The notes: generated by a model from the letters alone, not told the origin. 64,000 nt of DNA from an uncultured Candidatus Binatia bacterium (GCA_964291295.2 OZ219754.1:160001-224000), one strand, 5' to 3'; shown: positions 2,758 to 36,308, numbered from the stretch's first letter. A program made the numbers and translations.

Positions 2758-3273
2758 CTACCGGTCCAGTCGGAGGTTGCGGAAAATGGCCATGCGGGGA
2801 TCCCCCGAGGACACGCATCCACAGCCGATCCGATTCAACTCGGCACCACAGCCGGGGCACAGGCCGCGACAGCTTTCGCTGCACAGTGGCCGGAGGGGCA
2901 GGGCGAGCAGGGTCTGTTCGCGGACAAAGGGCGAGAGGTCGATGTCTTCTCCGGAGTAGAAGCTCAAACCCAGTTCGTCCGCCGTGAGTTCCATGTTCTT
3001 GTTAGTCGGAAGAGGGTCCGGAGTCAACACGAAGTCGAACGTTTTTTCAATGACGAACCGGAAGCTCTCCAGACAGCGGCTGCAATCCCCCTCCACCTCT
3101 CCCTCCAGCCCGCCGCGAAAAAAGATCTCCCGGCCCGACCGGTAGCAGGTCACCTGAACGTGGATCGGCGACGGGAAGCGTACCACCGAGACTCCATCGT
3201 CACCGATCTCGGGGATCTCGGAGAACCGGCTCTCCCGGGGAACGGTGTCGATCCGGTTGAGGGGAATGCGCAA
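2758..3273 (-). CDS. yceD: YceD/DUF177 family protein
   Basis: CSRCLE, DIDLSPFVREQTLLALP, LCSESCRGLCPGCG, DPRMAIF; TTG start at 3273 with GGAG upstream preferred over ATG at 3300. Confidence 0.88.
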   Translation of the reverse strand: MRIPLNRIDTVPRESRFSEIPEIGDDGVSVVRFPSPIHVQVTCYRSGREIFFRGGLEGEVEGDCSRCLESFRFVIEKTFDFVLTPDPLPTNKNMELTADELGLSFYSGEDIDLSPFVREQTLLALPLRPLCSESCRGLCPGCGAELNRIGCGCVSSGDPRMAIFRNLRLDR

Positions 3274-4168
3274 GACGACTCCAGTTGCCGCGATCTTCAT
3301 AGCGGGGAGACGGCACCCTTGTCAATTCGGAGTCCCGGGCGGGGCCGCCGGCAAGGCTGTCCCACGCTGCGTGTTTGTGCGAGGGGGTGAGGTTTGGGTC
3401 AGGCACGGACGGTCTCGCGCCGGGGCAGTCCTGCCTGGGGGATGTTGGAACGCATCGAACGGCAGCAAGGACATCTATCTTCTGCGCACCGGAACGAGCG
3501 GGACCGACAACTTCACCTACCGGCAGATTTTCGTCTACGATGTGCCGGATTTCCCGGAGGCGAGGCCCTATGAGCACATGAACTACGGGATGTGGCACAC
3601 GCAGAAGTCAGGCAGGACCAACCTTGGCATCTCATTCGTCACGGTGCTGCCCGATGGCGAGGGCATGACCCCGGCGGCCAACATGCCAAGCTTCGGCAGT
3701 GCCACCTACAGGGGTAATGCAATTTGGCAACACCGCGCACAGCACGCTCAGGGCGAAGGAGGTATCGGCGGTTGGGATGGAACCTCCACCACGACGGTGA
3801 ATTTCGGGAAAAGCACCATCAAGACCGATATTTTTAACGGGCACGTCATTTTGCAGGGCGGATATAACGGGATCATAGCCACATTCCACGGCACCATCGA
3901 CGGGAACGGGTTCTCGGGCAGCAAAGTGACCAATGTCAACGCCGAAGGCGCCGGCTACGATACGCCGGGATTTTTGGCCGGCTATCAGAGCCAGCATCGT
4001 GGCGCAGTGAACTTGGCCACGAGCGTGGACGGCAGCCTGTACGAGGTGAGAGAGTACAGCGGCCATTTCTTCGGGCCGGACGCCGAAGAGGTGGGCGGCG
4101 TGTTCGACATCACGTCCAAGGACAAGAAGAACGGCGAGTTGCGCGGCTCCTTCGGCGGCCGCAGGTAG
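3245..4168 (+). CDS. TbpB/HphA-like surface protein with C-terminal small beta-barrel (T11SS cargo type); 5' end probably truncated
   Basis: GSATYRGNA, FHGTIDGNGFSG, SGHFFGPDAEEVGGVF, terminal GSFGGRR; no lipobox; 5' part overlaps yceD and its promoter. Confidence 0.7.
   Translation: MSIRLRGMRKTTPVAAIFIAGRRHPCQFGVPGGAAGKAVPRCVFVRGGEVWVRHGRSRAGAVLPGGCWNASNGSKDIYLLRTGTSGTDNFTYRQIFVYDVPDFPEARPYEHMNYGMWHTQKSGRTNLGISFVTVLPDGEGMTPAANMPSFGSATYRGNAIWQHRAQHAQGEGGIGGWDGTSTTTVNFGKSTIKTDIFNGHVILQGGYNGIIATFHGTIDGNGFSGSKVTNVNAEGAGYDTPGFLAGYQSQHRGAVNLATSVDGSLYEVREYSGHFFGPDAEEVGGVFDITSKDKKNGELRGSFGGRR
3296..3325 (-). promoter_or_regulatory. Putative sigma70 promoter of the yceD-rpmF-plsX-fab operon
   Basis: Minus strand TTGACA-18 bp-TATGAA. 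Confidence 0.4.
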
Positions 4169-4206
4169 TAAACCGGTCGCCGTCACTGGCGGTGGTTCAC
4201 GGAGCG

Positions 4207-4248
4207 GGGCGCCCGATCCATCTCCGGATCGGGCGCCCTTTTCTTTTT
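4207..4248 (+). terminator. Rho-independent terminator
   Basis: GGGCGCCCGATCC-atctcc-GGATCGGGCGCCC 13-bp stem followed by TTTTCTTTTT. Confidence 0.85.
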
Positions 4249-4268
4249 CGACAGCCGCCGGGGAGGCT

Positions 4269-4841
4269 GTGGATGCGCCGTTACACGAGTTTCGTTGGCA
4301 TTTCGTTGTCACAATGCTGCTCGCGTTGATTCTGGCGACCGCGCCGGCGGAGGGCCAGCAGCCGCCTCCGGAGCTGTCCGCCGAGGCGCTGATCGATGCC
4401 GCGCGGGCGGCCTTGGCAAAGGGCGAGCCGGAAGACGCCGCGTTCCTGCTCGACGGTGTGAAACCGGGCGAGGGGAACCCCGACGATCTCGATTTCCTGC
4501 GCGGCTCCATCGCGATGCAGCGCGGGGAGTGGCAGAAGGCGATGGCACGGTTCCGGGCGATGCTGGCGCGCAATCCCGATCTGCCCCGGGTGCGGCTCGC
4601 GCTTATTTTCAGGCGGAGGATGACGGCAATGCGGCCTGTCACTTCCGCCTGGCGCTGGGCGCGAAGGACCTGCCCGAGACGGTGCGCGCCTCGGCGCTCG
4701 CCTTCCTCCCCCGCATCCGGCGGCGCAAGCGATGGTCGGTTACCGGCTCGGTGGCGCTTGTGCCTTGTTCCCGACACCAACATCAACGCCAGAACCGATG
4801 CCCGGGAGATCCTCCTGGGCCGCCGGCCCGGCACCTTGTGA
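4269..4841 (+). pseudogene. Slam (surface lipoprotein assembly modulator, T11SS) N-terminal remnant, frameshifted and truncated
   Basis: Signal peptide, TPR (FLRGSIAMQRGEWQKAMARFRAMLARNPDLPRVRL), continues in another frame (AYFQAEDDGNAACHFRLALG...RRKRWSVTGSVALVP) then back to DTNIN; barrel missing. Confidence 0.7.
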
Positions 4842-4955
4842 AGGCGCACCGTTTCTGCTAACGCAAGAGGCCGTGAGTCTGCTGGATCATCCCGGGCCGC
4901 CGAATGGTCGCCGGCGCACCGGCCGCCGGCCGGACGAACCGGCGGGAGGCGGGAC

Positions 4956-5870
4956 GTGAACGCGCGAGTGGGTTTGCTGCACGCCGTCGTGCTGGCCACG
5001 GTCGACTTGGCCACCAAGGTGCCGTCCGACCATCCCTCCGCCCGCAACCTGGGCACCGAGCGCATGGGTTCCGGCACCCTCATTGATCCCGCGGGCCTGA
5101 TCCTGACCGTCAACTACGTCGTCAACGGAGCCGAGGCCATCACCGTGACGCTGTCGGACGGGAAACAATACCCGGGCCGCCTGACGGCCCAGGACTTCGA
5201 CAGCGGCCTTGCCCTGGTCCACATCGACGCCGCCGATCTGCCTTTCCTCCGGCCGGCCGAAACCGTCACCGTCGGCCAGCCGGTGTTCATGGTGGCCAGC
5301 AATGGACAGCAACAGCGGCGGGTCAGCGACGGCAGCCTCACCTCCGTCGAAGGCTACGATGGGCAGTGGGAGTACCTGCTGGAACGGTCCATTCGGGTGA
5401 GCGCCTTCAATCCGGGATTCGGCGGCGGCACGCTGGCCGACTCCCGGGGCCGTCTCATGGGGGTGATCTCCCTCAACCTGAACGATGTCGGCAAGTTCAC
5501 GCTGGCCATCCCGGTGGAGTACTACCTTCGGGACGCGGAGGAGCTGAGACGGTTCGGAAGGGTGCGCAACCGGCCGCCGCGCGCTTGGCTCGGCCTCTAT
5601 TCACAGGCTCTGGAGGGCCATCTCCTGGTCACCGGCGTGACGCCGTCGGGACCCGCCGAGAAGTCCGGCCTGAAACAGGGCGACATCATCCTCGCGGTGG
5701 AGGGCCAGGAGGTGCAGACGCGGCCCCAACTCTACCGCGAGATCTGGAAGAAGCGTGCCGGGGACGCGGTCACCTTCCACGTGATCCGGGGCGACGGTTC
5801 GCAGGACGTTCAGGTGGCCAGCCGTGACCGCTGGGACTTCAACCAAGCCGGCGGGAAAGCCGGCGGCTGA
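4956..5870 (+). CDS. S1C/HtrA-fold protein with PDZ domain, catalytic His and Ser apparently substituted
   Basis: GSGTLIDPAGLILTVNYVV, NPGFGGGTL, C-terminal PDZ (GPAEKSGLKQGDIIL). Confidence 0.8.
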   Translation: MNARVGLLHAVVLATVDLATKVPSDHPSARNLGTERMGSGTLIDPAGLILTVNYVVNGAEAITVTLSDGKQYPGRLTAQDFDSGLALVHIDAADLPFLRPAETVTVGQPVFMVASNGQQQRRVSDGSLTSVEGYDGQWEYLLERSIRVSAFNPGFGGGTLADSRGRLMGVISLNLNDVGKFTLAIPVEYYLRDAEELRRFGRVRNRPPRAWLGLYSQALEGHLLVTGVTPSGPAEKSGLKQGDIILAVEGQEVQTRPQLYREIWKKRAGDAVTFHVIRGDGSQDVQVASRDRWDFNQAGGKAGG

Positions 5871-5880
5871 CCCGCGGCCC

Positions 5881-6366
5881 GTGAAAAATGCAACCCTCTG
5901 TCGTGTCATCTACGGCGACACGGACCAGATGGGGGTGGTCTACTACGCCAACTATCTCCGGTGGTTCGAGATCGGCAGAACGGAACTCCTGCGTCAGGCC
6001 GGGATTCCCTACGAGCGGGCGGAACGGGACGGCATCTTCTTCCCGGTCACCGAAGTGCAGTGCCGCTACCGCAAACCGGCCCGCTACGACGACCTGCTGA
6101 GGATCGAGACAACCGTCGAATCCCTCAGCCGTGTGGCGCTGAGATTCAACTACCGGATCGGCCTGGAAACCGGCCAAGTCACCCTCGCGTCGGGCTGGAC
6201 CAAGCATGCCTGCCTCAACCGCGACCACAAGCTGACCCGGCTGCCGGCCCGGTACGCCCGCGAGCTGGGACTCGGCACCCACCGGGACTCGGCACCGAGT
6301 AGCCGCCACCGTCAGGAAGACGGCGGAGACGCCTCCGCGGCAGGGTCGGACTCCGGACGGCAGTAG
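5881..6366 (+). CDS. Acyl-CoA thioesterase, YbgC/4HBT family
   Basis: YGDTDQMGVVYYANYLRWFEIGRTE, YRKPARYDD; GTG start at 5881. Confidence 0.9.
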   Translation: MKNATLCRVIYGDTDQMGVVYYANYLRWFEIGRTELLRQAGIPYERAERDGIFFPVTEVQCRYRKPARYDDLLRIETTVESLSRVALRFNYRIGLETGQVTLASGWTKHACLNRDHKLTRLPARYARELGLGTHRDSAPSSRHRQEDGGDASAAGSDSGRQ

Positions 6367-7667
6367 ACCTCCGCCACCTGACGCAACAGCGCGATATTGT
6401 CGGCATGACCCGTCATCTTCGCGGTCACGCGGCCGCGCAGGGGGCGGCCGATGAGGGAAAAGTCCCCCATGATGTCCAGGATCTTGTGGCGGGCGAACTC
6501 GTCCTCGAACCGCAACTCGGTATTGAGGATCCTCTCATCGTCCACCAGGATGCAGTTGCCGAGGCGGCCGCCCTTGATCAGGCCCATCCGTTCGAGCTTC
6601 TCGAAGTCACGCAGGAAGCCGAAAGTCCGCGCCGGCGCGATCTCGTCGCGGAACGAGTCCGCGCCCTTGTGGACGTACGTATACTCCTGGGTTCCCACGG
6701 GGCTCGGATACTGCAGGCGATAGTGCACGGTGAAGCCCTCCGCCGGCTCGATGAGAATCTCTTTCGCCCCCTCCCCGACCATTCGAAGGGTCCGGTCGAT
6801 GACGATCTCCGCCCCTTGCCCATCCTGTACCTCCACGCCGGCCTCCTCCATCAACCCGCAGAACTCGATGGCAGAACCGTCCATGATGGGAATCTCGCCA
6901 TACATCTTTATCAACAGGTTGGTGATGCCGTACGCGTGAAGCACCGCCAGCAGATGCTCCACCGTACCCACCACCACGCCGTCGCGCTGCAACGACGTGG
7001 CGAAATCGGTGGAACGCACGTAGTCCAGATGGGCAGGCACGGTGACGTCGCCGGAGATCCCGCCGAAATGGATACCGCTGTTCTCGGGCAACGGATGCAG
7101 GATGACACCCGTGCTGACACCCGAATGCAGCCCCAGACCGCAGGCCACCACGCTTTTCCCCAGGGTCTTCTGCGGCACGCCGCTTCCGGCGCCGTGGCCG
7201 CCGAAACGCCGGGACGCTGCCACGACGCCGCCGGCCGACGCCCGACGCCCGTCGTCGCTCCCGGAAGCCTCGCGCCGCATGTCGCCGCAGCCGCGCTTGA
7301 CGGCGGCCAGCAGGCCGTCCAGCGAAAGCGGCTTCTCGATAAAGTCGAACGCACCGAGCTTGGTGGCCGTCACCGCGGTGTGGACACTGCCGTGGCCGGA
7401 GATCATGATGACGCGGGCCTCGGGGTGCTCTCGCCGGATCTGCTTGAGCAGTCCGATCCCGTCCCGCTCGGGCATCCACACGTCCAGGAGAATGACGTCG
7501 GGCTCTTCCCTGGCGACGATGCCCATGACCTCCGATCCATCCAGGGCGGAGACCACCCGGTAGCCCTCGTCGGTGAGAACCTCCCGCACGGTCTCCCGGA
7601 TGACGTCCTCGTCATCCACCACCAGCACGGTCCGTTGCGCCGCCTGCGCGTTCGATGAATCTTCCAT
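6312..7667 (-). CDS. lpxC: Fusion: NtrX-like receiver domain + UDP-3-O-acyl-GlcNAc deacetylase LpxC
   Basis: ATG 7667 with AGAGGA RBS; REC motifs VVDDE, LLDVWMP, MISGHG, FIEKP; Gly/Ala/Arg linker; LpxC motifs QKTL, GLGLHSG, TVEHLL, EIPIMDGSA, IAPARTFGF, RHKILD, GHADN. Confidence 0.9.
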   Translation of the reverse strand: MEDSSNAQAAQRTVLVVDDEDVIRETVREVLTDEGYRVVSALDGSEVMGIVAREEPDVILLDVWMPERDGIGLLKQIRREHPEARVIMISGHGSVHTAVTATKLGAFDFIEKPLSLDGLLAAVKRGCGDMRREASGSDDGRRASAGGVVAASRRFGGHGAGSGVPQKTLGKSVVACGLGLHSGVSTGVILHPLPENSGIHFGGISGDVTVPAHLDYVRSTDFATSLQRDGVVVGTVEHLLAVLHAYGITNLLIKMYGEIPIMDGSAIEFCGLMEEAGVEVQDGQGAEIVIDRTLRMVGEGAKEILIEPAEGFTVHYRLQYPSPVGTQEYTYVHKGADSFRDEIAPARTFGFLRDFEKLERMGLIKGGRLGNCILVDDERILNTELRFEDEFARHKILDIMGDFSLIGRPLRGRVTAKMTGHADNIALLRQVAEVYCRPESDPAAEASPPSS

Positions 7668-7717
7668 GGTTCCTCTTCGTTCGGCGCCGCGCCCGGACAA
7701 GGGCACACCGGCGCCCT

Positions 7718-9973
7718 TCAGGACGCCTCGCTGGCGCGGACAGCCAGCGGCTCCGCCACCGGGAACTCCATGATGAAGCGGGTGCCGTGGGGCTGATTCG
7801 GACGCACGCGAACGTAGCCCCGGTGGTCGGCCACGATGGTCCCGACGATGGACAGGCCGAGTCCGGTGCCGTCTTTCTTGGTGGAGTAGTAGGGTTCGAA
7901 GACCCGGCCCCGGTTTTCCCGGGCGATGCCTTCCCCTTCGTCCGCCACCTCCAGGCGGACCATGCCGAAGGTCTCGTCGAACCGGATGGCGATCTCTATG
8001 CGCCCCTTGCCGTTGACGGAGGCGACGGCGTTGTCCAGCAGGTTGAACAGGGCGCGCTTGATCTGTTCCCGATCCAGCTCGACGGGTGGAATCGACGACT
8101 GTTCCGAGAAGTCGAAATCCACCTCCCGGTGCCCCTCCTTGAACAGAAACAGCGCTTCCCGGACCACTTCGTTGAGATCCTGCGGTGCGAGTTCCACGGT
8201 GGGCAGCCGCGCAAAGTTCGAAAACTCGTTCACCAGGTTCTTGAGCTCGTCCACCTGCCGGACGATGGTGGAGGTGCACTTGTCGAGTACCGCCCCGTCC
8301 CCGTCCAGGACATTCTCATAACGTTTGCGCAGGCGCTGCGCCGAGAGCTTGATGGGCGTCAGCGGATTCTTGATCTCGTGGGCGATGCGCCGCGCGGCTT
8401 CCCGCCACGCCTCCACGCGCTGGACCTTCTGGATCTCCGTGATATCCTCCATGAAGACCATGATGCCGAGCGTGCGGCCGTCGTCGTCCCGCAGGCTCGC
8501 GGCCACGGTCACCAGCGTCCGGTCGCCGTCCGGACCTCCGAGGCGGACACCCCGTTCCACTCCCGCACCGTCCTTCACCCGTTCGATGACTTCCAGCAGG
8601 GGCCGAAGCCCGGGTGTCCGCAACGCTTCCTCGTAGTGCCGGTGAAGCACGTCCGAAGCCCGTACGCCCAGAGTCTGTTCGGCGGCCTTGTTGACGATGG
8701 TCACCACGCCGGACCGGTCCACCGAGATGACCCCGGCCGTGATGTTGGCCAGCAGCGTCTCCATGTACCGCCGCCGCTGCTCCAATTCGGAGTTGGTACG
8801 CTTGAGATCCGCGGTCATCTGGTTGAAGGATGCCACCAGCGTGCTGATCTCGTCGCCGCCGCTGGCGTCGATGCGATAGTCCAGGTTGCCGTGCGAGACT
8901 TCGTGGGTCCCCTCCGCCAACTGCTGGATGGGCACGGTGATACCCTTGGCCAGGGCAAGCCCGAACCACGTCGCCGCAAAGATCATGACCAGCGTGATCA
9001 GCAGCAGAGTCAGCATGTAGGTCTGCTTCACCGGCTCCTTGAGAAGGGCCAGATGCTTGTGCTCCTCGTACGACCGGGATATCTGCTGCGCCTGCTTGCG
9101 GATGCTCTTGGGCACGAAATAGTCCACTACCACCGCGCCGATGATCCTGCGGCCGTCGCCGTGGACCGGCACCGCCCCCCGCAGCACGTCCCCCTCGCCC
9201 AGCGGCTGGGTCCGGGTCACCTCCAGTCCCCGCAGGGCGCTGTTCAGGAAATCCGCCTGCGGGCGGACCGTGACTCCGGTGGGCACCTGGTCGTTGAAGG
9301 CCTTCACCAGCGCGGCGCCGTCGGGCTTGTAGATCTCCACCGTGCCGAGATTGTATTCCCGCTGCTTGTCCTCCACCAGGCGCTTCAGGCCGTCGGACTT
9401 CTTCGGGTCGAACAGATCCTCGTCGCCGATGCGCTGGCTGAGCTGCCGGGCGAAGAAGAGCGCGTTGTCGGCGGAGTTCTGATAGTAGGTCCGGCTGATG
9501 TCGAGGGAGCCCTTGAGCGCGTTCACGACCTGCGAGTCGAACCACTTGTCGACGGAGCGCGTCACCAGGCTCTCGGCGATCAGGAACAGCATCACGGTGG
9601 GCACCAGCGAGATGCCGATGAAAGCCATCACCAGCCGGCTCTGAAGACGCGAGCCGAGGATGCGCCGGTGGCGGTCCAGCACCAGCTTCAGCAGGTTCCG
9701 CGACACCAGGAAGACCAGCAGCACCAGCAGAATGATGTTGATGTTGACCAGCAGGAAGAACGCGACGTTGCCGGTGAAGGCGTAGTCCGCCGAGACGTCG
9801 GGCAGAAGCTCCTCGAAGAACGCGAACAGCAGGATCATCAGGGCGGCGATGAGAATCACCCACCCTTCGCGCTTGCGCCGCTTCCGTTCCTGGGAGCGCA
9901 GCGTCTCCGCCCGCTCGTCGTTGCGCTTGACTGCGTTCGTCGGAGTGGACAAGACGGCATCCCCCCGCAACAC
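7718..9973 (-). CDS. NtrY-like membrane sensor histidine kinase (HAMP-PAS-HisKA-HATPase)
   Basis: 3 N-terminal TMs, HAMP (DEISTLVASFNQM), PAS, AWREAARRIAHEIKNPLTPI, NLLDNA, DEGEGI, GTGLGL. Confidence 0.92.
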   Translation of the reverse strand: MLRGDAVLSTPTNAVKRNDERAETLRSQERKRRKREGWVILIAALMILLFAFFEELLPDVSADYAFTGNVAFFLLVNINIILLVLLVFLVSRNLLKLVLDRHRRILGSRLQSRLVMAFIGISLVPTVMLFLIAESLVTRSVDKWFDSQVVNALKGSLDISRTYYQNSADNALFFARQLSQRIGDEDLFDPKKSDGLKRLVEDKQREYNLGTVEIYKPDGAALVKAFNDQVPTGVTVRPQADFLNSALRGLEVTRTQPLGEGDVLRGAVPVHGDGRRIIGAVVVDYFVPKSIRKQAQQISRSYEEHKHLALLKEPVKQTYMLTLLLITLVMIFAATWFGLALAKGITVPIQQLAEGTHEVSHGNLDYRIDASGGDEISTLVASFNQMTADLKRTNSELEQRRRYMETLLANITAGVISVDRSGVVTIVNKAAEQTLGVRASDVLHRHYEEALRTPGLRPLLEVIERVKDGAGVERGVRLGGPDGDRTLVTVAASLRDDDGRTLGIMVFMEDITEIQKVQRVEAWREAARRIAHEIKNPLTPIKLSAQRLRKRYENVLDGDGAVLDKCTSTIVRQVDELKNLVNEFSNFARLPTVELAPQDLNEVVREALFLFKEGHREVDFDFSEQSSIPPVELDREQIKRALFNLLDNAVASVNGKGRIEIAIRFDETFGMVRLEVADEGEGIARENRGRVFEPYYSTKKDGTGLGLSIVGTIVADHRGYVRVRPNQPHGTRFIMEFPVAEPLAVRASEAS

Positions 9974-10047
9974 GTTCTATCGCTTCCACCGGTGAATCAC
10001 AAAGGCAATGAGACCCCTCGCCGGGTGAGGCCGCCGGATCTCGGCGC

Positions 10048-11085
10048 TTACAACAACCGTTTCTGCCGCTTCTCCCGCTCCATGCGCGTGGCGGACTGGG
10101 AGCGTCCCAGGTGTCGATAGGCCACGGGCGTGGCGACGCGGCCCTGCGGCCGGCGTTCGAGAAAGCCGGCCTGGATGAGGTACGGCTCGTAAGCGTCCTC
10201 CACGGTGCCTCGCTCCTCGCCGATGGCGGCCGCCAAGGTATCCAGCCCTACCGGCCCGCCGTCGAACTTGTCGATGATGGTGGTGAGGATGAGCGTATCC
10301 ATCTTGTCGCAGCCCTGCTCGTCCACCTCCAGCATTTCGAGAGCCCGGCACGCCACCGGACGGGTGATCCGGCCCTCGCCGTGGACCTCGGCATAGTCCC
10401 GAACCCGCCGCAGCAGGCGGTTGGCGATGCGCGGGGTTCCGCGGGAGCGGCGCGCGATCTCCATGAAACCCGTTTCTTCGCCGCCCACGCCCAGCAGCGA
10501 CGCGGACCGGGCCAGCAGCCGCACCAGCACCTCCGGCTCGTAGAAGTCGAGCCGGAACACGGCGCCGAACCGGTTGCGCAACGCCGGGGTCAGCAGGCCG
10601 GAACGGGTGGTGGCACCAATGAGCGTGAACCGCTTGACATCGAGCTTGATGGACTTGGCGCCGGGACCCTGCCCGATCATCACGTCCACCTGAAAGTCCT
10701 CCATGGCCGGGTACAGCACCTCCTCCACCACATGGTTGAGGCGGTGGATCTCGTCAATGAAGAGCACGTCTCCGGGGTCGAGATTGGTGAGCAGTGCGGC
10801 CAGATCGCCGGGGCGCTCGATGACCGGCCCGGAGGTGGGACGAATGTCCACGTCCATCTCCCGGGAGATGAGATGCGCCAGGGAGGTCTTGCCCAGACCC
10901 GGAGGGCCGTGGAACAGCAGATGGTCCAGCACGTCGCCGCGGCGTCGGGCCGCGGTGATGGCCACCTCCAGATTGGCCTTGACCCTGTCCTGTCCGAAGT
11001 ATTCGCTGAACCGCCGGGGCCGGAGGCTGGAGTCGTAGAGGACATCCTCCTCGGTGCCCGCGGGCGTTATGGTCCTGTCTTCCAT
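10048..11085 (-). CDS. ruvB: Holliday junction helicase RuvB
   Basis: [40 protein letters not shown]. Confidence 0.97.
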
Positions 11086-11098
11086 GAACCCGGTATGC

Positions 11099-11683
11099 CT
11101 AGCCGCTCAGCAGGCGCAAGGCGCCCTTGAGCACGGTCTCCAACTCGGCGGCGCCCTCCGCCAACACCTCGCGCACCGCCCGTTCCGCCTCCTGGCGGCG
11201 GTAGCCGAGATTCACCAGCGCCGACAACGCGTCGCCGCGCACCCCGGAACCGACCGCCACCGCCGGAGCGGTTTCCGCAGCCGTGTCGATCCGGTCGCGC
11301 AACTCCACGATCATGCGGTCGGCCAAGCGCCTGCCCACCCCGGGAATCGACACCAGCCGGGCGACGTCGCCCTGCCTCAGGGCGGCCAGCACTTCCCCGG
11401 CCGCCATGCCCGACAGGATGTTGAGCGCCAGCCGGGGGCCGATGCCCGACACCCCGATGAGCAGCGTGAAGGCCTGCTTCTCCGCAGGGTCGAAGAAGCC
11501 GAACAGCTGGAGCACGTCTTCCCGGACGTGGGTGTAGGCCAGCAGCGTCACGGGTTCCCCCACCTCGGGCAGCCGGTAGAAGACGCTGAGGGCGGTATGC
11601 AGGTGATAGCCGACGCCGCCGACGTCCACGACGACCTCGCCCGGCGCCTTGTGGTCCAGTGTTCCGCGAACCTTGGCGATCAC
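11099..11683 (-). CDS. ruvA: Holliday junction DNA-binding protein RuvA
   Basis: [36 protein letters not shown]; GTG start. Confidence 0.95.
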
Positions 11684-11739
11684 CACGGGCCTCCCCCCGA
11701 CCCGGTGGCCGGAGCGGGCCGCTCGACGACCGGCATCCG

Positions 11740-12288
11740 TCAGCCCTTGCCGGCGGGAAGAGCATCGGCCTGCCAATGCAGCCCCCTCCCCCGCCGACCC
11801 GTTCCAGCCATGGCGCGGTACCCGTACAGGTGGCCGTGGCAGATGGCGGCCGCCAGGGCGTCCGAAGCATCCTCCTCGGGCTCGTCCGGCAACCCCAGGA
11901 TGGCCGTCACCATCTGCTGCATCTGACCCTTGCCCGCGTGCCCGTAACCGGTCAACGCCTTCTTGACCTGGACGGCGTTGTACTCCGAGACGGCGATGTC
12001 GCATGCCGCCGCGGCCACAAGAGCCACCCCGCGAACCTGCCCGAGCTTGAGCGCGCTCTGGACGTTGCGCGCCAGAAAGACCTTCTCAAGACTGACGTGT
12101 TCGGGCTCGTGCTCTTGTATGACCTTGGCCAGTTCCGTGAATATCCGGTGGAGGCGCCGGTCCTGGGATTGGCGGGTGGCGGTGCGCACGGTGCCGTGGG
12201 CGACATGTTGCAAGCGGACGCCGTCCGCCCGGATCACGCCCCAGCCGGTCTTGAGGGTTCCGGGGTCTATGCCCAGAATGGTTTCGAT
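11740..12288 (-). CDS. ruvC: Holliday junction resolvase RuvC
   Basis: ILGIDPG, EKVF, KLGQVRG, VKKALTGYGHAGKGQ, DASDALAAAICH; start uncertain (ATC after GGAGAAGGAAAG). Confidence 0.93.
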   Translation of the reverse strand: METILGIDPGTLKTGWGVIRADGVRLQHVAHGTVRTATRQSQDRRLHRIFTELAKVIQEHEPEHVSLEKVFLARNVQSALKLGQVRGVALVAAAACDIAVSEYNAVQVKKALTGYGHAGKGQMQQMVTAILGLPDEPEEDASDALAAAICHGHLYGYRAMAGTGRRGRGLHWQADALPAGKG

Positions 12289-12307
12289 CTTTCCTTCTCC
12301 GGCGACG

Positions 12308-13054
12308 TCAACCAGCCTGCTCGAGAATGTCGTCCGGGATGTCGAAGTTCGCCGCGACGCTTTGCACATCGTCGTGGTCCTCGAGGTCCTCGGTGAGGCT
12401 GAGGGTCTGCTCGGCCTCCTTCCCGCCCAGCGTCGTGGTGCTCCTGGGAATCCGGGTCACCTCGGCCGACACCACCGGGATTTTCCCGTTCTCCAGACTC
12501 TCCCGGACCGCAGCGAAGTCCTCGGGCCGGGTCACGATCTCGAACACGTCGCCGCTCTCGGTGACGTCCTCGGCGCCGGCCTCCAGGGCGAGCCCCAGGA
12601 GCGCCTCTTCCTCCGCAGCCTCCCGGGACACGACAAACAGGCCCTTGCTGTCGAACATCCAGGCCACGCAGCCCGTCTCTCCCAGGTTGCCGCCGTGCTT
12701 GTGGAACAGCCGCCGGATGTCCGACACCGTGCGGTTCCGGTTGTCGGTCAGAACCTGCACCATGAAGGCCACACCGCCGGGACCGTAGCCCTCGTAGCTG
12801 ACCTCTTCGTAGGAGACGCCCTCAAGCTCGCCGGTGCCCTTCTTGATGGCGCGCTCGATGTTGTCGTTGGGCATGCTGTTGTCACGGGCCGTCTGGACGG
12901 CGGTGCGCAGGCGCGGATTGGCCGCGAGATCTCCTCCCCCCATGCGGGCGGCCACGGTGATCTCCTTGATGAACTTGCTGAAGAGCTTGCCGCGCCGAGC
13001 GTCCTTGACAGCCTTCTTGTGCTTGATGGAACTCCATTTCGAATGTCCGGACAT
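12308..13054 (-). CDS. yebC: YebC/PmpR family protein
   Basis: [44 protein letters not shown]. Confidence 0.97.
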
Positions 13055-13669
13055 GACGCGACACGCTCCTCGAACAGGACTGGACCCATGGCCGGCGGGA
13101 CCGCCGAAAAACGGGACCGACCGGCGGGACCGCCGGCAAAACGGCCGCCCCGACTCGGTTCCCCGGCAATTCGGCTCCCGGAACCCGGGATCCTTGCACC
13201 TGGCTCATCGGCGCACACGGGAAAAATACCACAATTCGCGCCGCCCCGTAAACGAAACCGTCCGGCAGCCCGGGCTGAAGACGCGTATGGCGGCGTCGGG
13301 ATCACGATGACGACCGGGACAGCCGGCGCGCGCCTGCCCATTCGGATTGACGGCGATGCGGTGATCCCGGCCGTGCGGGGGCCGGAGAAAGCGGCCGGGA
13401 AACGGCGAGAACAGGAGATCAAGTCTCGGTGGAAGTAGTACAGATCAAGGAGAGCCCGGCGTCACATCCCGTACAGGCACGAAGCCGGACAGGCACGAAT
13501 GCCCGACAGACACGGAAACCATCCCGGAGCGGTTCGATCAAGGAGGGAGGTCAACATCGTCGAGGATGCCTTGTGTCAGTCGCTCCGCCGCCGGGCTTCG
13601 CTCCGGGAGACCGGAAACGGGAGGCATGAGCCGCCCGTCCGTCCTCATCAGCCATCGCCAGGTTCACGA

Positions 13670-14857: not shown

Positions 14858-15843
14858 TCACCCGATGAATTCGAAGTCGGATTCGGTAAAGTCGGATGCG
14901 GTAAAGGGGGATCCCGTTCCCACGACCACGGGCGAGTAAAGCGTGACGCTCCAGTCATCCCCGGGCCCGGTGATCACCACCCATGAGTGCACCCAGACAT
15001 CCCCGCCATCCTTGATGGTCAGATCCGAGAACTGGATGCCGCCCTCGAACACCAGCTTGTCCTTGTTGTCCTCGAAGAAATCTATCCTGTCATGACCGCT
15101 TTCGTTGTCGAACACGAAGCGGTCCTCACCCTCGCCGCCCCGCATCCAGTCGTCGCCCTTGCCGCCGTACAGAACATCGTCGCCCTCTTGGCCGAACAGT
15201 GTGTCGCCGCCGTCGCCACCGTACATGGTATCGTCGCCCTCATGGCCCCATAAAAAGTCGACGCCGCTGCCGCCGTACAGGGTATCGTCGCCCTCACCGC
15301 CACTCAAATTGTCGTGGCCGCCGCCGTACAGAATGTCGTCGCCGTCGCTGCCGCTCATCCTGTCGTCGCCGCTGCCGCCGTACAGGGTATCGTCGCCCTC
15401 ACCGCCCGTCAAAAAGTCGCGGCCCCCGGCCCCGTACAGGGTATCGTCCCTGCGCCGCCGCTCATACTGTCGTCGCCGGGGCCGCCGTACAGAATGTCGT
15501 CGCCGTCGCTGCCGGACATACTGTCGTCGCCGGGGCCGCCTTTCAGAATGTCGTCGCCGTCGGCGCCGTACATAGTGTCGTCGCCGGGGCCGCCTTTCAT
15601 CCGGTCGTCGCCGCCGCCGCCGTTCAGCCTGTCGTCGCCCTCACCCCCTTTCAGAATGTCGTTGCCGTCGGCGCCGTACAGGTTGTCGTCGCCCTTGCCG
15701 CCGAACATCGTTTCTTCGCCACGTCCACCACTCCAATGATCATCATGATCGGTGCCCGTGAACGTGTAGCGGAAATTCTTGTCCGCCCACCAAGCGGTGC
15801 CGTCCTCTCCCAGCAACCTCATGAGCTTGTACCGGACTTTCAC
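14858..15843 (-). pseudogene. Second RTX calcium-binding protein, split by a 1-nt frameshift near 15450
   Basis: GTG start 15843 after GAAAGGGGGA; GGxGDD repeats in ORF 15409..16434 continue in ORF 14858..15412; one G missing in GCA GGG (G)AC GAT ACC. Confidence 0.75.
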
Positions 15844-26272: not shown

Positions 26273-29200
26273 TCACCAGCGCAGCGAGACCCGCACCTCC
26301 AGGCTGTGATCGGCGGAGTCGCGGTCCTGGCTGCGCTCGCCCTCAAACGAAAGCTCGAATGCCGGAGCGATGGTGTAACGCGTGCCCACGCGCACGCTCC
26401 CTTCACCCCGCTCCGCCAGCGTGAACCCGACATACGGGCTCAGCAACGCCATCGGCCCCGACCCCAACACCCCGAAGCCGTAACCCACCTCCGCATCCAG
26501 CTGACTCTCCGCCTCTGCTCCGCTCCCCGTCAGGAACGACGTGCCCGGCGTGCGGTCGAACAGCCCATCCAGATCCGTCGCGGTGACCCCGTATGCCGGC
26601 GTCAATGTCAGGAACAGCCCGCTCCCGTCCGCTCCCGGATCCAGTTGCACCATGCCGCCCACTCCCCATTCCTCCCGGTCCCGCTCGTGCGCCACCAGCG
26701 CCCGCGTGCGCAACTCCACCGTCAGCCCCATCCCCGGCTCGCGCCAACTCACGCTCGCCCCCACTTCCGCTCCCACCCCTTTTTCCACATCCCCGCTGTC
26801 GTGCCGCATCCCCACCTCCAGCGCCGGCGTCACCGTCCCGCCCCCCTCCAGCGCACGCTCATACGATCCCTCCAGCGCCAGGCGCAGCCGGCGCGCATCC
26901 ACCGAAAGCGCCTCCAGACCCGATCCCGCTTCCGTCTTCACCCGCACCATCGACCCCTCCCCACGTACCGCCACCCGCGTCACCCCGCCCGCAATCCACT
27001 CCCCATCCTCGCTCAGCACGCCGCGCCCGCCCGCCGCCGCACTCGTCAGCTTCATCTCCACTTCACGGTCCGCCCGCTCCGCCTCCTCCACGCCCACCTC
27101 GCCCTCGCCGTACCCCGCGCTCGCCCACAGGTTCGATCCGTCTCCGCTCAGCCACGCCGCATAGGGATGCACCGCCGTCAACTCCGTCTTGTACACTCCC
27201 TTCACACGGTTGCCCCCCGCGTCGTCCACCTCCGTGTCCAACTCCCCGCGGGAATGCGACAACGCCACCCCCGCCAGCACGTCCGCCCGCAGCCGCACAT
27301 CCGTTCCCAGATGCGCCGACCACACCTCCCCGTCCCAGGAAACGTCCTCCTCCGAACCCGACAGCGAGTCCAGGTCACCCCGACCCCACACCGCCACCCT
27401 CGGAACGCTCCCCCCGCTCATCCCGGATGCGCCCATCGGCAGCGCGAACGCCGCCCCGTCCAGCATGTCCCGCAGGTCCGGATTCTCCGCTTCCTTCTCC
27501 AACATCCCGCGCAGGCCCGAACCCCGGCCCGAACCCCACTCATCCTCCAGCATCCCGCGCGGCCACGCTCTCCGCTGCTCCTCCAGCCACACGCCGTCCG
27601 CCCCCTCCCTCGCACCGGGCGCCGCCTGGGCCACGCCGAAATGCAGCGACCGGCCCGCCTTCCCCGACGCCACCGCCTGGATGCGACCCGCCACCGCATC
27701 CAGCGACTGCGACGCCATTGCCGCCGCCACCTGCGGCAGCACCGCTCGGTGGACCTTGTTGGCGTGCGCCGCCATCGTGTCCTCCACCGTCACCGTCACG
27801 CTCCCGCCCGTCACTGCCACCTCCATGTTGCCCATCATGGCCGTGTGCCTCAGCGTCACCGTGTCGTCGTCCGTGTCGTCGTCCGGCACACCCGTCACCG
27901 TCACCGGCTGCGGGGTGTTCCAATTGGCGGTGGTGAAGGTCAGCGGTCCCGAAACCGTCGCAATCGCCGTGTTGTCGCTCGCCGGCGTCACCATGACCGT
28001 ATCCGCCGGCGCCTCGTCCAGAACCACCGTGTAGGTACCGCTCCCCCCCTCGGATATCGTCAGCGCGGTCGGCGTCACCGTCAGACCGACCGTCGTACCG
28101 GTGTCGCCGGTGAAGCCTTGGTAGCCCGTGCCCGGAGGACCATCCAGCAACTTGCCCTGGACCGTCACCTCCTCGCCGATGGCATAGCCGGTGGCATCGT
28201 TCAGCGTGACCGTGTACTTCTCGACGCCTTCCGATGCGTCGGCGTCCACGCTGGTGCGAATCGCAATGGTGCCGGTCCTGCGGCCGCCGAAATTCACGTT
28301 GAATGTCCGCGTCAGCGCCCCCTGAATATCATCCGCCGTGAAGCCGCTCGAATCCCGATCGGACAGCGTCAGGCTCACCGAAAGAACGCCCGGTACCGGC
28401 TTGTCCGAACGGACGGCCAAGGTGATCGGTGTCCCCTCGCTCACCCGGGCGGGATTCGCTCCGAGCGTCAGGGTAGGCGTCGTGTCCCGGACCCAGAGGC
28501 TTCTCGTAAACATGCCGTCTTTCGGGTAGCAATGGCCGCCGCCCTTTGCACGGACCAGAACGGTTATCCCGTGGTCGCTGGTATCCTCATCCGCGTTCAA
28601 CTTCACCCAGATAACCTGCGGCTTGTTCCAATTTGATGGGGTGAACGTGAGATAATTCGGACCTCCCGAATAGATGGTCGCCTTGTCGGTGTATGTCCAC
28701 TCGCCGTTCTTTACAACGAACGGCATGGGAACCAATTCCAACGGCGCCGTGGGCGCTTTCCTGGGGTGGATCCAGTACTCGACCGCATCTCCCTCGGCGG
28801 GGGGAGTGGGGCTCGGGAAGCCCTTGCTCTTTCTGGACGGCCATTCCACCGTCCAGCCCATGTATGACCAATATACGCCCCAGGTGGTCGTATCCCATTT
28901 ACTGGGCACATGGGCTTTCGCTGCCCGTGTGGCCCAGGTCGCCGTCGTCGCTCTGAGTTCGACCTCCTGCGATGGCAGACACTCGTCGGAGGTCAGGACG
29001 TAGCTGGTGGCGGATGCGTCCGGGATGGTGACCCAGTCGTGCCACCTCTCGTACCGGGCCATCGAACCGTTGAAGGTCCGGTACCGGGCCTGCCAGCCGG
29101 TACGGCCCGGATGATCCGGTGCGGTCCAGCTCAGATGCAGCTTGTCGCCCCGTCGATTCACCGTCAGGTCGATGGGAACCCCCGTGTCATCAAGCGGACT

Positions 29201-34600: not shown

Positions 34601-34809
34601 CCTACTCTCCTTGTTCCCCAATGCCGTATTCCTCGATGCCAAAGCGCCCGCGGCGGGAGCCAATCCTCTCAAACGTGCCATCATCAATCCCTCCTCGAAT
34701 CCGTCCTGTCCCTTCCTGTCCTGTCCTTCCCGTCCGTCCCTCTCCTGCCGCCAGCCTCAAGACTCCAATGCCTACACGGCCTCCAATGCCCACACGCATT
34801 GGCTGCTCA

Positions 34810-35021: not shown

Positions 35022-36308
35022 TTATCGGCGGGCGCCCCAGGCGCCGACAAGGTCGCGTCCGGCGTCGTTGACGATGCCGGCAGCAGCACCGGCGGGGTCG
35101 CCGGCGGTGGCATAGAACCGCGCATTGGCGCGCCGACCGGCATCAACCCAAGCGCCGTCGTGGCGGACGAGGTCGTAGCCGACCGCAGCGATGGGGTGGG
35201 TCGCGCCGGCGGAATCGGTGCGGGAGAGATCGGACAACATGAGATCGATCTCCGCGAGGTCGGCGAGGTCGGCGGTCAGGGTGGCGCGGCCCGTCACCGG
35301 CTGGAACAGTGCGGACTGTGCGCCGAGGAAGGTTCCGGACCAAGTGGCGGTGCCGAGGCCGGGATCAGGCCCGGGGCCGGGCGTGCCGGCGACGCCGGGC
35401 GTGATCGCGATGGTGTCGGTGATGCTGTCGGCGGCCGCCGTGCCTCGGCGTTCGGAGATGAGCGTGCGGGTCATGGTAACGCCGAAGCCGTCGAGGCCGC
35501 CGTCCTCCATCGGTTCCGCCCAGAGACCGAACTTCTGATGGTCCTCAACCGCTGGACCCAAGGTCCATCGATGAAGCCCGGCGAAGTCGGCTTCGGCGGG
35601 CACCAGTGACCGGAACGAGGATGCGGGACACATGAGTTGGGTGCCCTGGCACGCCGCATGTCCCGTACCGGTTTGCGGATCAAGGTAAGAGAGCGTGTGG
35701 CCGACTTCGTGGAGCAGGATACCGAAGTGCCAGTTCTCAAGCCGGTTGCCGGGCCGCTGGTCGTCGATGGCATCTTCAAGGAACCGGCCGGGCAGAACGA
35801 TCCTGCCGGTCCGGGCGCAGGCGTAGTCGCTGGCAGCGCACTCTCCCGTATCCCCGACCCTGAGTTCAATGGCGTGGATGCCGCCGTCGATGAGACGCCG
35901 GGTCCAGAGCAGCGCGGCGCGGGCGGTCATGGCGTCGAGGTCGGCGGGGATCTGTCCGGGATCGGTGCCGGGGTAATCGATTCGGCGGATGACGGGGACC
36001 GGGTGGTTGGGCGCGGTTCTCGTGACATTGAAACCGCTGGCAGCGGGCGGCAGCCGCACGGTGCGGAACGCCAGCGTGGGGTCGATGGCAGCGCGGTTGG
36101 CGGCGGTGAACTCGGAGGCGACCTGGGGAACGGACGGAGCAACCGGAGCAACCCGAGGCGCGGCTCCGCCGCCGCTCCCGCCGCCGCAGGCGGAGAGCAG
36201 GGTGCCGGCGAGCAGCGCTGCGAACAGGACAGCGGGGAAAGCTGCGGAACCCCCGGCGGGAACGATGCCACGGGAGATGCCACGGGAACTCGGAGTACGG
36301 GTGAACAT
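35022..36308 (-). CDS. Lipoprotein with metzincin-like Zn-protease motif and TbpB-like C-terminal barrel
   Basis: Lipobox [11 protein letters not shown]; LLHEVGHTL...GH...LMCP; [11 protein letters not shown]...GRATLTADL...LVGAWGARR. Confidence 0.7.

Follow-up and report, generated by a model that had tools for sequence, protein, structure and literature searches.

Organization of the locus

The window, a 64,000-nt stretch of DNA from an uncultured Candidatus Binatia bacterium, carries on its minus strand a gene for an NtrY-type sensor histidine kinase and, 50 nt further on, a gene encoding a receiver (REC) domain joined to the deacetylase LpxC. The features are listed below with the evidence that places them; ruvA, ruvC and yebC lie upstream of ruvB.

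6312..7667, minus strand: REC-LpxC fusion gene, 451 aa, ATG at 7667, stop at 6312-6314 (ORF, Pfam and NCBIfam)
6372..7172, minus strand: LpxC deacetylase domain, residues 166-432 (Pfam PF03331 and aligned solved LpxC chains)
7173..7295, minus strand: linker, residues 125-165, about 41 aa, low-complexity, of variable length, predicted disordered
7296..7628, minus strand: receiver domain, residues 14-124 (Pfam PF00072), with the D62 codon at 7482-7484
7668..7717, minus strand: spacer between kinase stop and fusion ATG, 50 nt, with GAGGAA before the ATG
7718..9973, minus strand: NtrY-type sensor histidine kinase, 751 aa (Pfam domains)
10048..11085, minus strand: ruvB, conserved upstream neighbour (Pfam)
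11099-12004, minus strand: ruvA (Pfam)
11740-12369, minus strand: ruvC (Pfam)
12308-13054, minus strand: yebC (Pfam)

The open frame of the fusion spans 6312..8279 in the ORF listing, and its far upstream GTG overlaps the kinase gene; the ATG at 7667, with GAGGAA ahead of it, is a plausible start and gives 451 aa. A search for terminator-like sites between 5700 and 13300 gave none. Response_reg covers residues 14-124 (E 3.4e-32, profile 1-111/111) and PF03331 covers residues 166-432 (E 3.7e-80, 269.7 bits for a cut-off of 27, profile 1-267/268), while the NCBIfam model TIGR00325 (lpxC) scores 254.2 bits for a cut-off of 187.25. The first-pass annotation had described a complete receiver and a complete LpxC in one 451-aa ORF, 50 nt past an NtrY-type kinase and devoid of the AAA+/HTH output of NtrX. 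ORF and Pfam analyses agree with this description, and Pfam detects neither AAA+ nor HTH in the 451-aa protein. The linker is flexible and predicted disordered as had been proposed, although at about 41 aa it is slightly longer than the 35 or so residues claimed.

The kinase contains the domains NtrY_N (membrane region, 33.3 bits for a cut-off of 23.2), sCache_3_2 (a Cache-like periplasmic part), HAMP, PAS, HisKA and HATPase_c. All five domains of the NtrY_N, HAMP, PAS, HisKA and HATPase_c architecture are thus found by Pfam, and NtrY-type refers here to this architecture, the NCBIfam matches of the kinase including no NtrY equivalog. The signal sensed could be periplasmic, which is a guess. 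The kinase is present in one copy in the window's genome. In 39 of the 40 relatives the fusion follows it directly, so that the proposed pairing of the two genes holds as a conserved neighbourhood; ruvB is directly upstream of the kinase in 39/40 as well, the order ruvB-kinase-fusion being kept. The ruvB-ntrY adjacency holds within the window's order; at the other annotated loci the neighbours are different. In the phylum, a single full-length kinase orthologue was found in 365 of 400 sampled genomes. Coordinate reading in this sample shows the kinase adjoining the fusion in 12 genomes with a short form and 12 with a long form (described below), and the fusion apart from the kinase in 38 genomes; the two are also apart at three of four distant loci, and all four distant fusion-bearing genomes contain exactly one kinase orthologue. 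Where the genes are apart, it is one-to-one co-occurrence, and only this, that suggests the pairing.

Conservation of the two domains in one frame

Alignment to the Brucella NtrX structures 4d6x and 5m7n places the phosphorylation pocket at D18/D19, D62 (LLDVWMP), S90 (ISGHG), and F109 and K112 (FIEKP), and the same functional residues also align with the Aquifex NtrC4 receiver. The motifs previously read from the sequence (DD pocket, LLDVWMP, SGHG, KP) are therefore all found and aligned with functional residues. The two Brucella structures are the best PDB matches of the window receiver (E 7e-28 and 9e-27), and among the response-regulator models of NCBIfam it matches NtrX best, in line with the NtrX-like character attributed to it. 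The window protein itself was rejected as an NtrX, since it matches the NtrX model NF051870 by its receiver alone (positions 3-126 of 452, 120 bits for a cut-off of 600) and is without AAA+ or HTH; it carries an NtrX-derived receiver. Among 77 family members with identities down to 30%, D19, W64, D69, G70, S90, E111, K112 and P113 are invariant, and the phospho-acceptor D62 is kept in at least 90%. The family member P0262 has an Asn in place of this Asp in the alignment, so at least one lineage operates without phosphorylation.

In the LpxC half, alignment to P. aeruginosa LpxC identifies E237-H238 (TVEH), T348, H394-K395-D398 (HKILD), D402 and H421, and the P. aeruginosa motifs TVEH, RTFGF, HKILD and GHA are matched. 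The zinc and catalytic motifs listed in the first-pass annotation (TVEH, HKILD, GH) are thus all in place at functional residues, which we take, from the roles assigned in E. coli and P. aeruginosa, to be the zinc ligands (His, His, Asp) and the catalytic Glu, His and Thr. They are invariant in the 77 family members, except T348, conserved in at least 90%. The AlphaFold2 model of the domain has a pLDDT above 90 over most of its length and, compared with solved LpxC structures by Foldseek, gives target-normalised TM scores of 0.82-0.95 with an rmsd of 1.5-3.5 A over about 275 columns. The genome is 99% complete, and a check for further lpxC genes found the fusion to be its sole LpxC match; lpxA, lpxB and lpxK are also present. 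We infer that the fusion would have deacetylase activity on UDP-3-O-acyl-GlcNAc, because the residues are conserved and it is the sole LpxC in a genome with lpxA, lpxB and lpxK.

The fusion was found in 40 of 40 relatives with an uninterrupted frame, several closed genomes among them, and both Pfam domains occur in all of the best 120 database clusters. The fusion is therefore genuine and conserved, and the concern that it might be unique to one assembly can be set aside. An artefact, with two genes misjoined or LpxC made separately from an internal start, is very improbable: a GTG does lie at 7178 (residue 164), two codons ahead of the LpxC domain in the window's genus, but the unbroken frame in these relatives and in more than 100 independent protein clusters refutes an assembly artefact, and family members have V, L, I or E at the candidate start, which is hence not conserved as a start. 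Fused and free LpxC occur together in three sampled genomes (G074, G239 and G351).

Relationship to a sigma-54 regulator of lpxC operons

In a tree of the LpxC domain (n = 82), all 49 fused sequences and 2 short sequences of LpxC alone fall on one side of a branch with an SH-aLRT of 100, and 26 stand-alone LpxC and 5 LpxC-FabZ proteins fall on the other. Short LpxC sequences without a receiver (P0269 and P0284) inside the fused clade may be gene fragments or secondary losses. The clade also includes REC-AAA+-LpxC long forms of about 730 aa that lack the sigma-54 GAFTGA loop. The grouping of the short forms as a single clade was rejected by the AU test (p-AU 0.003), indicating that, judged from these sequences, the short form has more than one origin. 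The long form P0246 covers the NCBIfam NtrX model from one end to the other and, compared with the window protein, has about 345 aa of AAA+/HTH at the position of the linker, whose length and sequence are not conserved in the family alignment. The tree and this comparison bear out the idea that a longer NtrX-LpxC ancestor lost its AAA+/HTH module by deletion. All 3/3 stand-alone orthologous regulators have the GAFTGA loop, versus 0/15 long fusions.

Two operons are found in sister lineages, lpxC-DUF4390-kinase-regulator, with an intact GAFTGA in the regulator, and lpxC-DUF4390-kinase-kdtA-lpxK (G300 and G425). Five genomes were queried with the receiver of the regulator that G438 encodes in its lpxC operon. 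The two genomes with a free LpxC each gave one clear orthologue, a stand-alone regulator (68% and 62% identity), and the three with a fusion each gave one as well, the fused REC (55-57%); the next-best receivers in the five genomes did not exceed 47%. The window REC is 55% identical to the G438 receiver and its reciprocal best match, while the other full-length sigma-54 regulators of its genome share 41-42% identity with the G438 regulator over the whole length. Each genome checked has either the stand-alone regulator or the fusion, never both, and no second regulator orthologue was found in the window's genome or in three other fusion-bearing genomes. With one orthologue per genome, stand-alone or fused, the proposal that the fused receiver takes the place of the kinase's usual regulator is upheld. 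The window REC is the orthologue of the sigma-54 regulator of the lpxC-DUF4390-kinase-regulator operons, and we infer that the kinase would transfer phosphate to it, because the kinase adjoins the fusion in 39/40 relatives and the kinase and receiver orthologues co-occur one-to-one. Sister lineages keep a kinase and a sigma-54 regulator in an operon beside lpxC, and comparison supports an ancestry in which the regulator was joined to LpxC in this clade. The fusion would next have lost the sigma-54 contact loop and then, in the window's lineage, the whole AAA+/HTH module.

Among the closest known systems is the comparable one of Desulfovibrio, where the kinase-regulator pairs DVU2931/DVU2934 and Dde_3000/Dde_3003 have lpxC as their only detected target in the available parts of PMC3333781 and PMC4045070. 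DVU2934 is described there as binding solely upstream of lpxC (PMC3333781), and a Dde_3000 kinase mutant as having lpxC alone raised (PMC4045070). The lpxC-DUF4390-kinase-regulator operons of the sister lineages are of the same kind. The Desulfovibrio system, however, acts on transcription through sigma-54 with regulator and enzyme as separate proteins, whereas the window protein has lost the DNA-binding and AAA+ parts, and its receiver and enzyme form one polypeptide. NtrY/NtrX of Brucella, Rhodobacter and Caulobacter resembles the locus by architecture, in the kinase (NtrY_N, HAMP, PAS, HisKA, HATPase_c) and in the receiver, closest to the Brucella NtrX structures. NtrX is itself without GAFTGA, as are the long fusions that match its model. 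Unlike the window protein, NtrX binds DNA and has a regulon of dozens of genes, its effect on lpxC being indirect. Its loss together with NtrY in R. sphaeroides raised lpxC transcripts 8.8-fold and also LPS (in the text available of PMC7240162), and NtrYX is described as lowering both (PMC7240162 and the accessible part of PMC12444477). In keeping with the stated link of NtrYX to the envelope, published work ties related systems to lpxC, as the single target in Desulfovibrio and as a repressed gene in Rhodobacter.

Possible control of LpxC by phosphorylation

We favour, with a probability of about 0.55, the reading that the adjacent NtrY-type kinase has the 451-aa protein as its cognate response regulator, with LpxC itself as the output domain. 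This uncultured bacterium would then probably control LpxC directly by phosphorylation. The kinase, whose HisKA H-box HEIKNPL carries the H-E-x-x-N motif of bifunctional kinase/phosphatases, would set the phosphorylation state of D62; the receiver would pack against LpxC, and phosphorylation would shift this packing and alter the catalytic output. If the Desulfovibrio logic were kept, the phosphorylated form would give more LpxC output. A broader scenario, to which we give slightly less than an even chance, is that a single-copy envelope kinase present in most genomes of the phylum is devoted to controlling lipid A flux, and that the sigma-54 regulator of this kinase became joined, in one large clade, to the product of its sole target. 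Transcriptional control would thereby have become allosteric phospho-control, the useless AAA+/HTH would have decayed and been deleted several times independently, and LpxC would be switched by phosphorylation of D62 as the receiver re-packs on the catalytic domain.

AlphaFold2 models were made of the full-length window protein and of a member sharing 40% identity with it; the pTM reaches 0.86 and 0.85, although the linker is disordered (pLDDT below 50 at residues 131-154 and 156-159). By calculation, such values need the predicted error between REC and LpxC to be about 2-5 A, which implies confident docking of REC on LpxC in the models; unplaced domains would cap pTM at about 0.6-0.7. The linker is long, floppy and unconserved, making a rigid inter-domain coupling unlikely. 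A receiver on a flexible linker to an enzyme is also the arrangement of CheB (REC-methylesterase), PleD/WspR (REC-GGDEF) and RpfG (REC-HD-GYP). In CheB, catalysis is blocked while the unphosphorylated receiver sits on the catalytic domain; the models of the fusion also predict a packed two-domain state, so the logic could be as in CheB, a comparison of working and not of homology. The outputs of these proteins are signalling enzymes, whereas that of the fusion would be an essential biosynthetic enzyme of a committed step, in the cell's sole copy. The proposed mechanism would also recall FtsH-LapB-YejM of E. coli and MurA-LpxC of P. aeruginosa, in which lipid A flux is set at the LpxC protein: the enzyme is about 80% less active with LapB bound and is activated by bound MurA (PMC12444477, in its available part), so LpxC is tunable by a bound protein. 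Those regulators are separate proteins responding to LPS or peptidoglycan-precursor status, whereas here regulation would come from a phospho-receiver that is fused to the enzyme and answers to a membrane sensor kinase. LpxC commits the cell to the synthesis of outer-membrane lipid A; if true, the broader scenario would add a new way of regulating LpxC and an example of a two-component system with a core pathway's committed step as its output. A literature search found no published description of a REC-LpxC fusion or of such LpxC control, consistent with the earlier remark that no characterised example was known, and the words 'receiver', 'fusion' and 'fused' are absent from the available text of the LpxC-control review PMC12444477.

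Phosphorylation could instead set the amount of LpxC, the receiver being a phospho-dependent degron or adaptor site (for FtsH, Lon or ClpXP) that replaces the enterobacterial C-terminal degron and LapB. Receiver domains such as RssB and CpdR do steer proteolysis, and the RssB model matches the window REC in NCBIfam (E 4.4e-23), as many other receiver models do likewise. Most family members stop 1-9 residues past the LpxC domain, and the window's genus has an unconserved tail of 18-22 residues, hence the family has no conserved C-terminal degron. Proteolysis is moreover the best-known LpxC control in what is available of PMC12444477. We nevertheless consider this explanation unlikely, as the annotated loci show no gene for a protease or adaptor linked to the fusion and a degron role has no need of the confident REC-LpxC packing seen in the models.

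The same packing weighs against a positioning role, since the models put the receiver on LpxC and do not leave its surfaces free. Phosphorylation alters the oligomeric state of NtrC/NtrX-type receivers, and the phosphorylated form could bind the membrane kinase or dimerise, bringing the enzyme to the inner membrane near later lipid A enzymes. The kinase gene within the kdtA-lpxK type of lipid A cluster (G300 and G425) and the Neisseria protein Ght, proposed in the accessible part of PMC12444477 to localise LpxC to the inner membrane, fit such a role, which we hold to be improbable.

Finally, it is highly improbable that the receiver is a leftover without regulatory effect on LpxC or a phosphate sink serving another regulator. 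It is what would remain after deletion of the AAA+/HTH module, and P0262 is without the phospho-acceptor Asp; however, the absence of a second regulator orthologue in the four fusion-bearing genomes leaves no obvious regulator for a sink to serve. The phosphorylation pocket is invariant or nearly so across the 77 members, including several independent short-form lineages, which points to strong purifying selection and a functional receiver.

Receiver and LpxC in a single reading frame

The REC-LpxC fusion gene lies on the minus strand of the window, in an open frame listed at 6312..8279 whose distal GTG falls within the gene of the NtrY-type kinase, in a different frame. ATG 7667, preceded by GAGGAA, is the plausible start and yields a protein of 451 aa, 50 nt from the kinase stop at 7718. 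The first-pass annotation had described one ORF joining a complete receiver to a complete LpxC, 50 bp downstream of an NtrY-like kinase, and both the ORF and the coordinates agree with it. Pfam detects a complete receiver (residues 14-124, E 3.4e-32), a complete LpxC (residues 166-432, E 3.7e-80) and no further domain, in keeping with the claimed absence of AAA+ and HTH. In the receiver half, whose best matches are 4d6x and 5m7n, structures of the Brucella NtrX receiver, and then Aquifex NtrC4, residues D18/D19, phospho-acceptor D62, S90, F109 and K112 align with solved receivers. The LpxC half aligns to the solved P. aeruginosa, E. coli and Aquifex enzymes (E 1e-51 to 1e-41), with the motifs TVEH, RTFGF, HKILD and GHA all in position. 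NCBIfam places the fusion above the lpxC equivalog cut-off and gives NtrX as its best response-regulator model, over the receiver part only; the alignments and these models confirm the NtrX-like receiver and the LpxC active-site motifs noted at first pass. An internal translation start for LpxC was considered and rejected.

Genes around the fusion (window coordinates, strand, description; the plus-strand genes and ruvB to yebC by Pfam)
544-1491, minus: fabD
1488-2822, minus: plsX
2758-3300, minus: yceD
3245-4168, plus: TbpB-like beta-barrel lipoprotein
4269-4841, plus: TPR protein
4956-5870, plus: HtrA-like protease with PDZ domain
5824-6366, plus: 4HBT thioesterase, 3' end overlapping the fusion 3' end by 55 nt
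6312-7667, minus: REC-LpxC fusion
7718-9973, minus: kinase, 751 aa, with NtrY_N, a Cache-like part, HAMP, PAS, HisKA and HATPase_c (Pfam); cytoplasmic part at about residues 390-751
farther upstream of the kinase, minus: ruvB, ruvA, ruvC, yebC

Some 3 kb separate fabD, plsX and yceD from the fusion, which shares their strand, so that fatty-acid and phospholipid synthesis genes are close to lpxC. The plus-strand run at 3245-6366 converges on the fusion. A promoter and terminator scan of 5700-13300 gave nothing above shuffled background and no terminator-like site, and Rfam and tRNA scans of the entire window gave no match.

Distribution of the fusion and of the kinase

The window's genome (3.70 Mb, 3 contigs, 99% complete) has a single LpxC match, the fusion gene, which bears out its status as sole lpxC; lpxA, lpxK and lpxB are also present. 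We compared 40 relatives, 24 of the genus and 16 of the order. One uninterrupted match runs across both domains in 39/40, with G031 split over two contig ends, and an assembly or annotation artefact is therefore scarcely credible and was rejected. The kinase lies directly upstream of the fusion on the same strand in 39/40 relatives, and ruvB directly upstream of the kinase in 39/40, as the suggested ruvB-ntrY adjacency called for; both exceptions are G033, a genome 81% complete without a match. A protein search gave 7,895 hits; both Pfam domains are present in each of the best 120 clusters (60-100% identity, 417-472 aa), and the few that are named are MAGs of Deltaproteobacteria, Candidatus Binatia or Candidatus Acidoferrales. 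With the 40 relatives, they extend the Response_reg + LpxC architecture well beyond a single assembly. Public annotation hides these fusions, since sources label the proteins merely 'LpxC' or 'NtrX'. For proteins >790 aa at E <= 0.001, 281 passed and none of the 120 listed held LpxC, which is weak evidence that there is no larger fusion.

Of 400 genomes sampled from the phylum, 353 gave an LpxC match (E <= 1e-40). Contiguous REC-LpxC matches account for 54 of these, counted among the matches listed, and about 30 are LpxC domains of the fused type (50-61% identity) whose open frames measure 554-837 aa; fused-type matches in frames of 450-497 aa make up 17, a fragment 1, and stand-alone LpxC of <=45% identity 251. 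Frame lengths run from stop to stop, and the architecture was verified with Pfam in four genomes (G148, G085, G298 and G196). Fused and free LpxC occur together in G074, G239 and G351. A single full-length kinase orthologue (about 40-48% identity) was found in 365/400 genomes, and in six genomes, among the matches listed, it has a stand-alone lpxC 0.8-1.4 kb upstream. Numerous fusions show no linkage to the kinase gene.

Kinase-fusion linkage by coordinate comparison, among matches listed for both LpxC and kinase (short form, REC-LpxC without AAA+; long form, REC-AAA+-LpxC of about 730 aa)
short-form genomes: kinase adjacent 12, on another contig 13
long-form genomes: kinase adjacent 12, on another contig 8
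frames of 450-497 aa and fragment: kinase adjacent 0, on another contig 17

By local tblastn, 4 of 80 LpxC loci fetched are fusions (L012, L013, L027 and L076). The four distant fusion genomes, which include a Nitrospirae MAG and the 1.1-Mb 'Deltaproteobacteria bin116', have exactly one kinase orthologue each, and it adjoins the fusion in only one of the four. The 1.1-Mb record of 'Deltaproteobacteria bacterium bin116' (L012/G441, CP070817.1) keeps REC-LpxC and one kinase about 930 kb apart.

Gene order around kinase orthologues
G438 (sister-lineage genome): lpxC-DUF4390-kinase-regulator, the regulator being REC-Sigma54_activat (254 bits)-lid-HTH
G300 (L099, G300:C32, 2016-8705): lpxC-DUF4390-kinase-kdtA(waaA)-lpxK
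G425 (L100, G425:C11, 1960-8245): lpxC-DUF4390-kinase-kdtA(waaA)-lpxK
G148: kinase, then a 728-aa fusion
G298, G093, G196: kinase without neighbouring regulator, REC-LpxC elsewhere

At L099 and L100, both of sister-lineage genomes, the kinase orthologue thus sits within a lipid A cluster with no regulator alongside, and an orthologue of the sigma-54 regulator is encoded elsewhere. Neither the window's genome nor G026 yielded a DUF4390 match, and the positive controls G438, G300 and G298 matched, so the window's lineage seems to be without this accessory protein, the usual neighbour of the kinase elsewhere. The LapB zinc ribbon (PF18073) had no match in the window's genome; its control also matched Gram-positive genomes, and the search is therefore uninformative on LapB. 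In family f21, the unlinked REC-LpxC comes directly after a radical-SAM gene (L097, G196:C2, 2226-7238; L095, G093:C55), near SIR2-family and CDP-alcohol phosphatidyltransferase genes, a neighbourhood kept in two genomes.

Relation to the lpxC regulator and origin of the short form

The regulator of the lpxC operon in G438 carries the sigma-54 contact loop GAFTGA, Walker A and, after the phospho-Asp, the same DVWMP motif as the window's receiver, and the two receivers are 55% identical. With the G438 receiver as query, each of five genomes gave one clear orthologue. Where LpxC is free, in two of the five, the orthologue is a stand-alone regulator (68% and 62% identity, both with GAFTGA), and in the three fusion genomes it is the fused receiver (55-57%); the next-best receivers reach <=47%. 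The only full-length sigma-54 regulators in the window's genome are 42% and 41% identical to the G438 regulator over the whole length, versus 55% for the fused receiver. One orthologue per genome, stand-alone or fused, together with the lower identity of the other regulators, indicates that the fusion replaces the regulator. Comparison shows the fused receiver to be the orthologue of the lpxC-linked regulator and the kinase to be its conserved partner, and so points to a fused receiver that is the kinase's own regulator, relocated.

A family search covered 1.84 billion representatives, and Pfam was run on 41 of the 150 matches listed. REC + Sigma54_activat/AAA_lid + LpxC was found in 15/41 (650-736 aa), REC + LpxC without AAA+ in 22/41 (412-505 aa), and N-terminally cut pieces of AAA+ + LpxC in 4/41; HTH_8 was found in three of the 41 proteins only (P0248, P0255 and P0256). 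Sigma54_activat scores of the long forms vary between 141 and about 30 bits, Walker A is kept in 12/15, and none of the 15 has a GAFTGA-like loop. The long form P0246, whose residues 1-444 cover the whole of the NtrX model, was used as query: of 4,994 hits, the best 120 clusters all carry AAA+ + LpxC, and 115 of them a receiver as well. No species name occurs among the 240 best clusters from this search and the one with the window protein. P0242 and P0248, both long forms, belong to clusters named as Nitrospinota MAGs.

Complete LpxC domains were cut from 109 sequences, and the tree holds 82 of them, every second stand-alone row (27/55) being omitted. A branch with SH-aLRT 100 has on one side all 49 fused domains with P0269 and P0284 (short, 'alone'), which lack a receiver though placed within the fused clade, and on the other 26 stand-alone LpxC and 5 LpxC-FabZ. 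The tree intermixes short and long forms. The window protein belongs to a clade of 8 short forms (support 96), and this clade joins the long forms P0246 and P0247 (support 94). A tree constrained to a single short-form clade (26 short versus 14 long, P0272 being excluded for want of a receiver) is worse by 95 log-likelihood units, and the AU test rejects it (p-AU 0.003). The window protein and P0246 share 47% identity in the receiver and 57% in LpxC, and about 345 aa are missing in between. This gap and the rejected single clade indicate that the short form arose from a long NtrX-LpxC fusion through deletion of the middle part, more than once. The tree is unrooted, and we infer the long-to-short direction from decay of the AAA+ domains. 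The series, from a free regulator with GAFTGA through a regulator-LpxC fusion without GAFTGA to a receiver-LpxC that has lost the remainder of the regulator, illustrates cleanly how gene fusion can rewire a regulatory circuit in nature.

Possible control of LpxC through its receiver

Comparison shows both halves to be under strong purifying selection, as receiver and as enzyme. AlphaFold2 was run on the full-length window protein (77-row alignment) and on full-length P0275, 40% identical to it (40-row alignment); the models reach mean pLDDT 88 and 90 and pTM 0.86 and 0.85, with low confidence in the linker only. By our own arithmetic, two well-folded but mutually unplaced domains would have a pTM ceiling of about 0.6-0.7, and to reach the values obtained the predicted error between the domains must be about 2-5 A; the models thus predict a packed REC-LpxC state. 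A separate-chain complex prediction of REC 8-130 and LpxC 160-440 (alignment A2 of the fusion family) scored 0.00 against a mark of 0.32 with no control folded, and speaks neither for nor against. Residues G187, Y246, K254, C270 and L374 of LpxC, each kept in >=85% of the 49 fused-clade domains and found in <=16% of 58 stand-alone LpxC, are candidate receiver contacts; K254 is mostly Glu in free LpxC.

The H-E-x-x-N/T motif marks bifunctional kinase/phosphatases, and the kinase H-box, H-E-I-K-N, fits it, so that the kinase would set the phosphorylation level of D62. The receiver would pack on LpxC, with an output face that changes upon phosphorylation, the same logic as in CheB, and LapB and MurA, which lower or raise LpxC activity when bound to it, are a precedent for tuning by a bound protein. 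With the packed models, these likenesses make a phospho-switch of catalytic output the reading we favour, at a probability of about 0.55; points against it, or unaccounted for, are an Asn at the acceptor position of P0262, the receiver-less P0269 and P0284 within the fused clade, the three genomes with both a fused and a free LpxC, the many fusions unlinked to the kinase gene, and the lack of a DUF4390 match in the window's genome and in G026. Through the same receiver, phosphorylation may instead govern LpxC stability, which we rank lower and think unlikely, or LpxC localisation, which is less likely still. A vestigial receiver, or one acting as a sink, ranks below these as improbable.

LpxC, a leading antibiotic target, determines how fast lipid A is made, and response regulators whose output is an enzyme are already known. 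In D. vulgaris, the sigma-54 regulator DVU2934, in an operon with kinase DVU2931, has lpxC as its single target, and lpxC of S. fumaroxidans adjoins the orthologous operon; orthologues are named for Syntrophobacter, Geobacter lovleyi and Acidobacterium capsulatum (PMC3333781). PMC4045070 reports for D. alaskensis that a transposon in kinase Dde_3000 increases lpxC with practically no other change, and that lpxC has a sigma-54 promoter. In R. sphaeroides, according to PMC7240162, NtrYX loss raises lpxC mRNA 8.8-fold and LPS, indirectly. The proposed switch may act in either direction: the phosphorylated regulator of D. alaskensis appears to raise lpxC expression, whereas alphaproteobacterial NtrYX lowers lpxC. 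A 2025 lipid A review (PMC12444477) covers FtsH-LapB-YejM, inhibition by LapB binding, MurA activation, Lon, Ght and NtrYX/ChvGI transcription, does not contain the words 'receiver', 'fusion' or 'fused', and lists LpxC control outside enterobacteria and Pseudomonas as unresolved, a question on which the fusion bears. In the literature outside subscription-only papers we found no published REC-LpxC fusion, consistent with the earlier remark that no characterised example was known. What is new, and was found in no paper there, is a receiver joined to the committed lipid A enzyme and replacing the transcription factor that formerly controlled its gene. As the regulator is built into LpxC's own polypeptide, the hypothesis is directly testable with purified protein, a kinase fragment and variants.

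Three further ORFs of the window may be mentioned. A giant one (26273-34687, minus, 2804 aa) with fn3, Calx-beta and PKD/Ig-like domains is probably a surface or adhesion protein, and a small one of 184 aa (14858-15412, minus) carries RTX calcium-binding nonapeptide repeats. The aconitase ORF (35637-39500, plus) is listed at 1287 aa with its domain beginning at residue 469, and has either an internal true start or an N-terminal extension.
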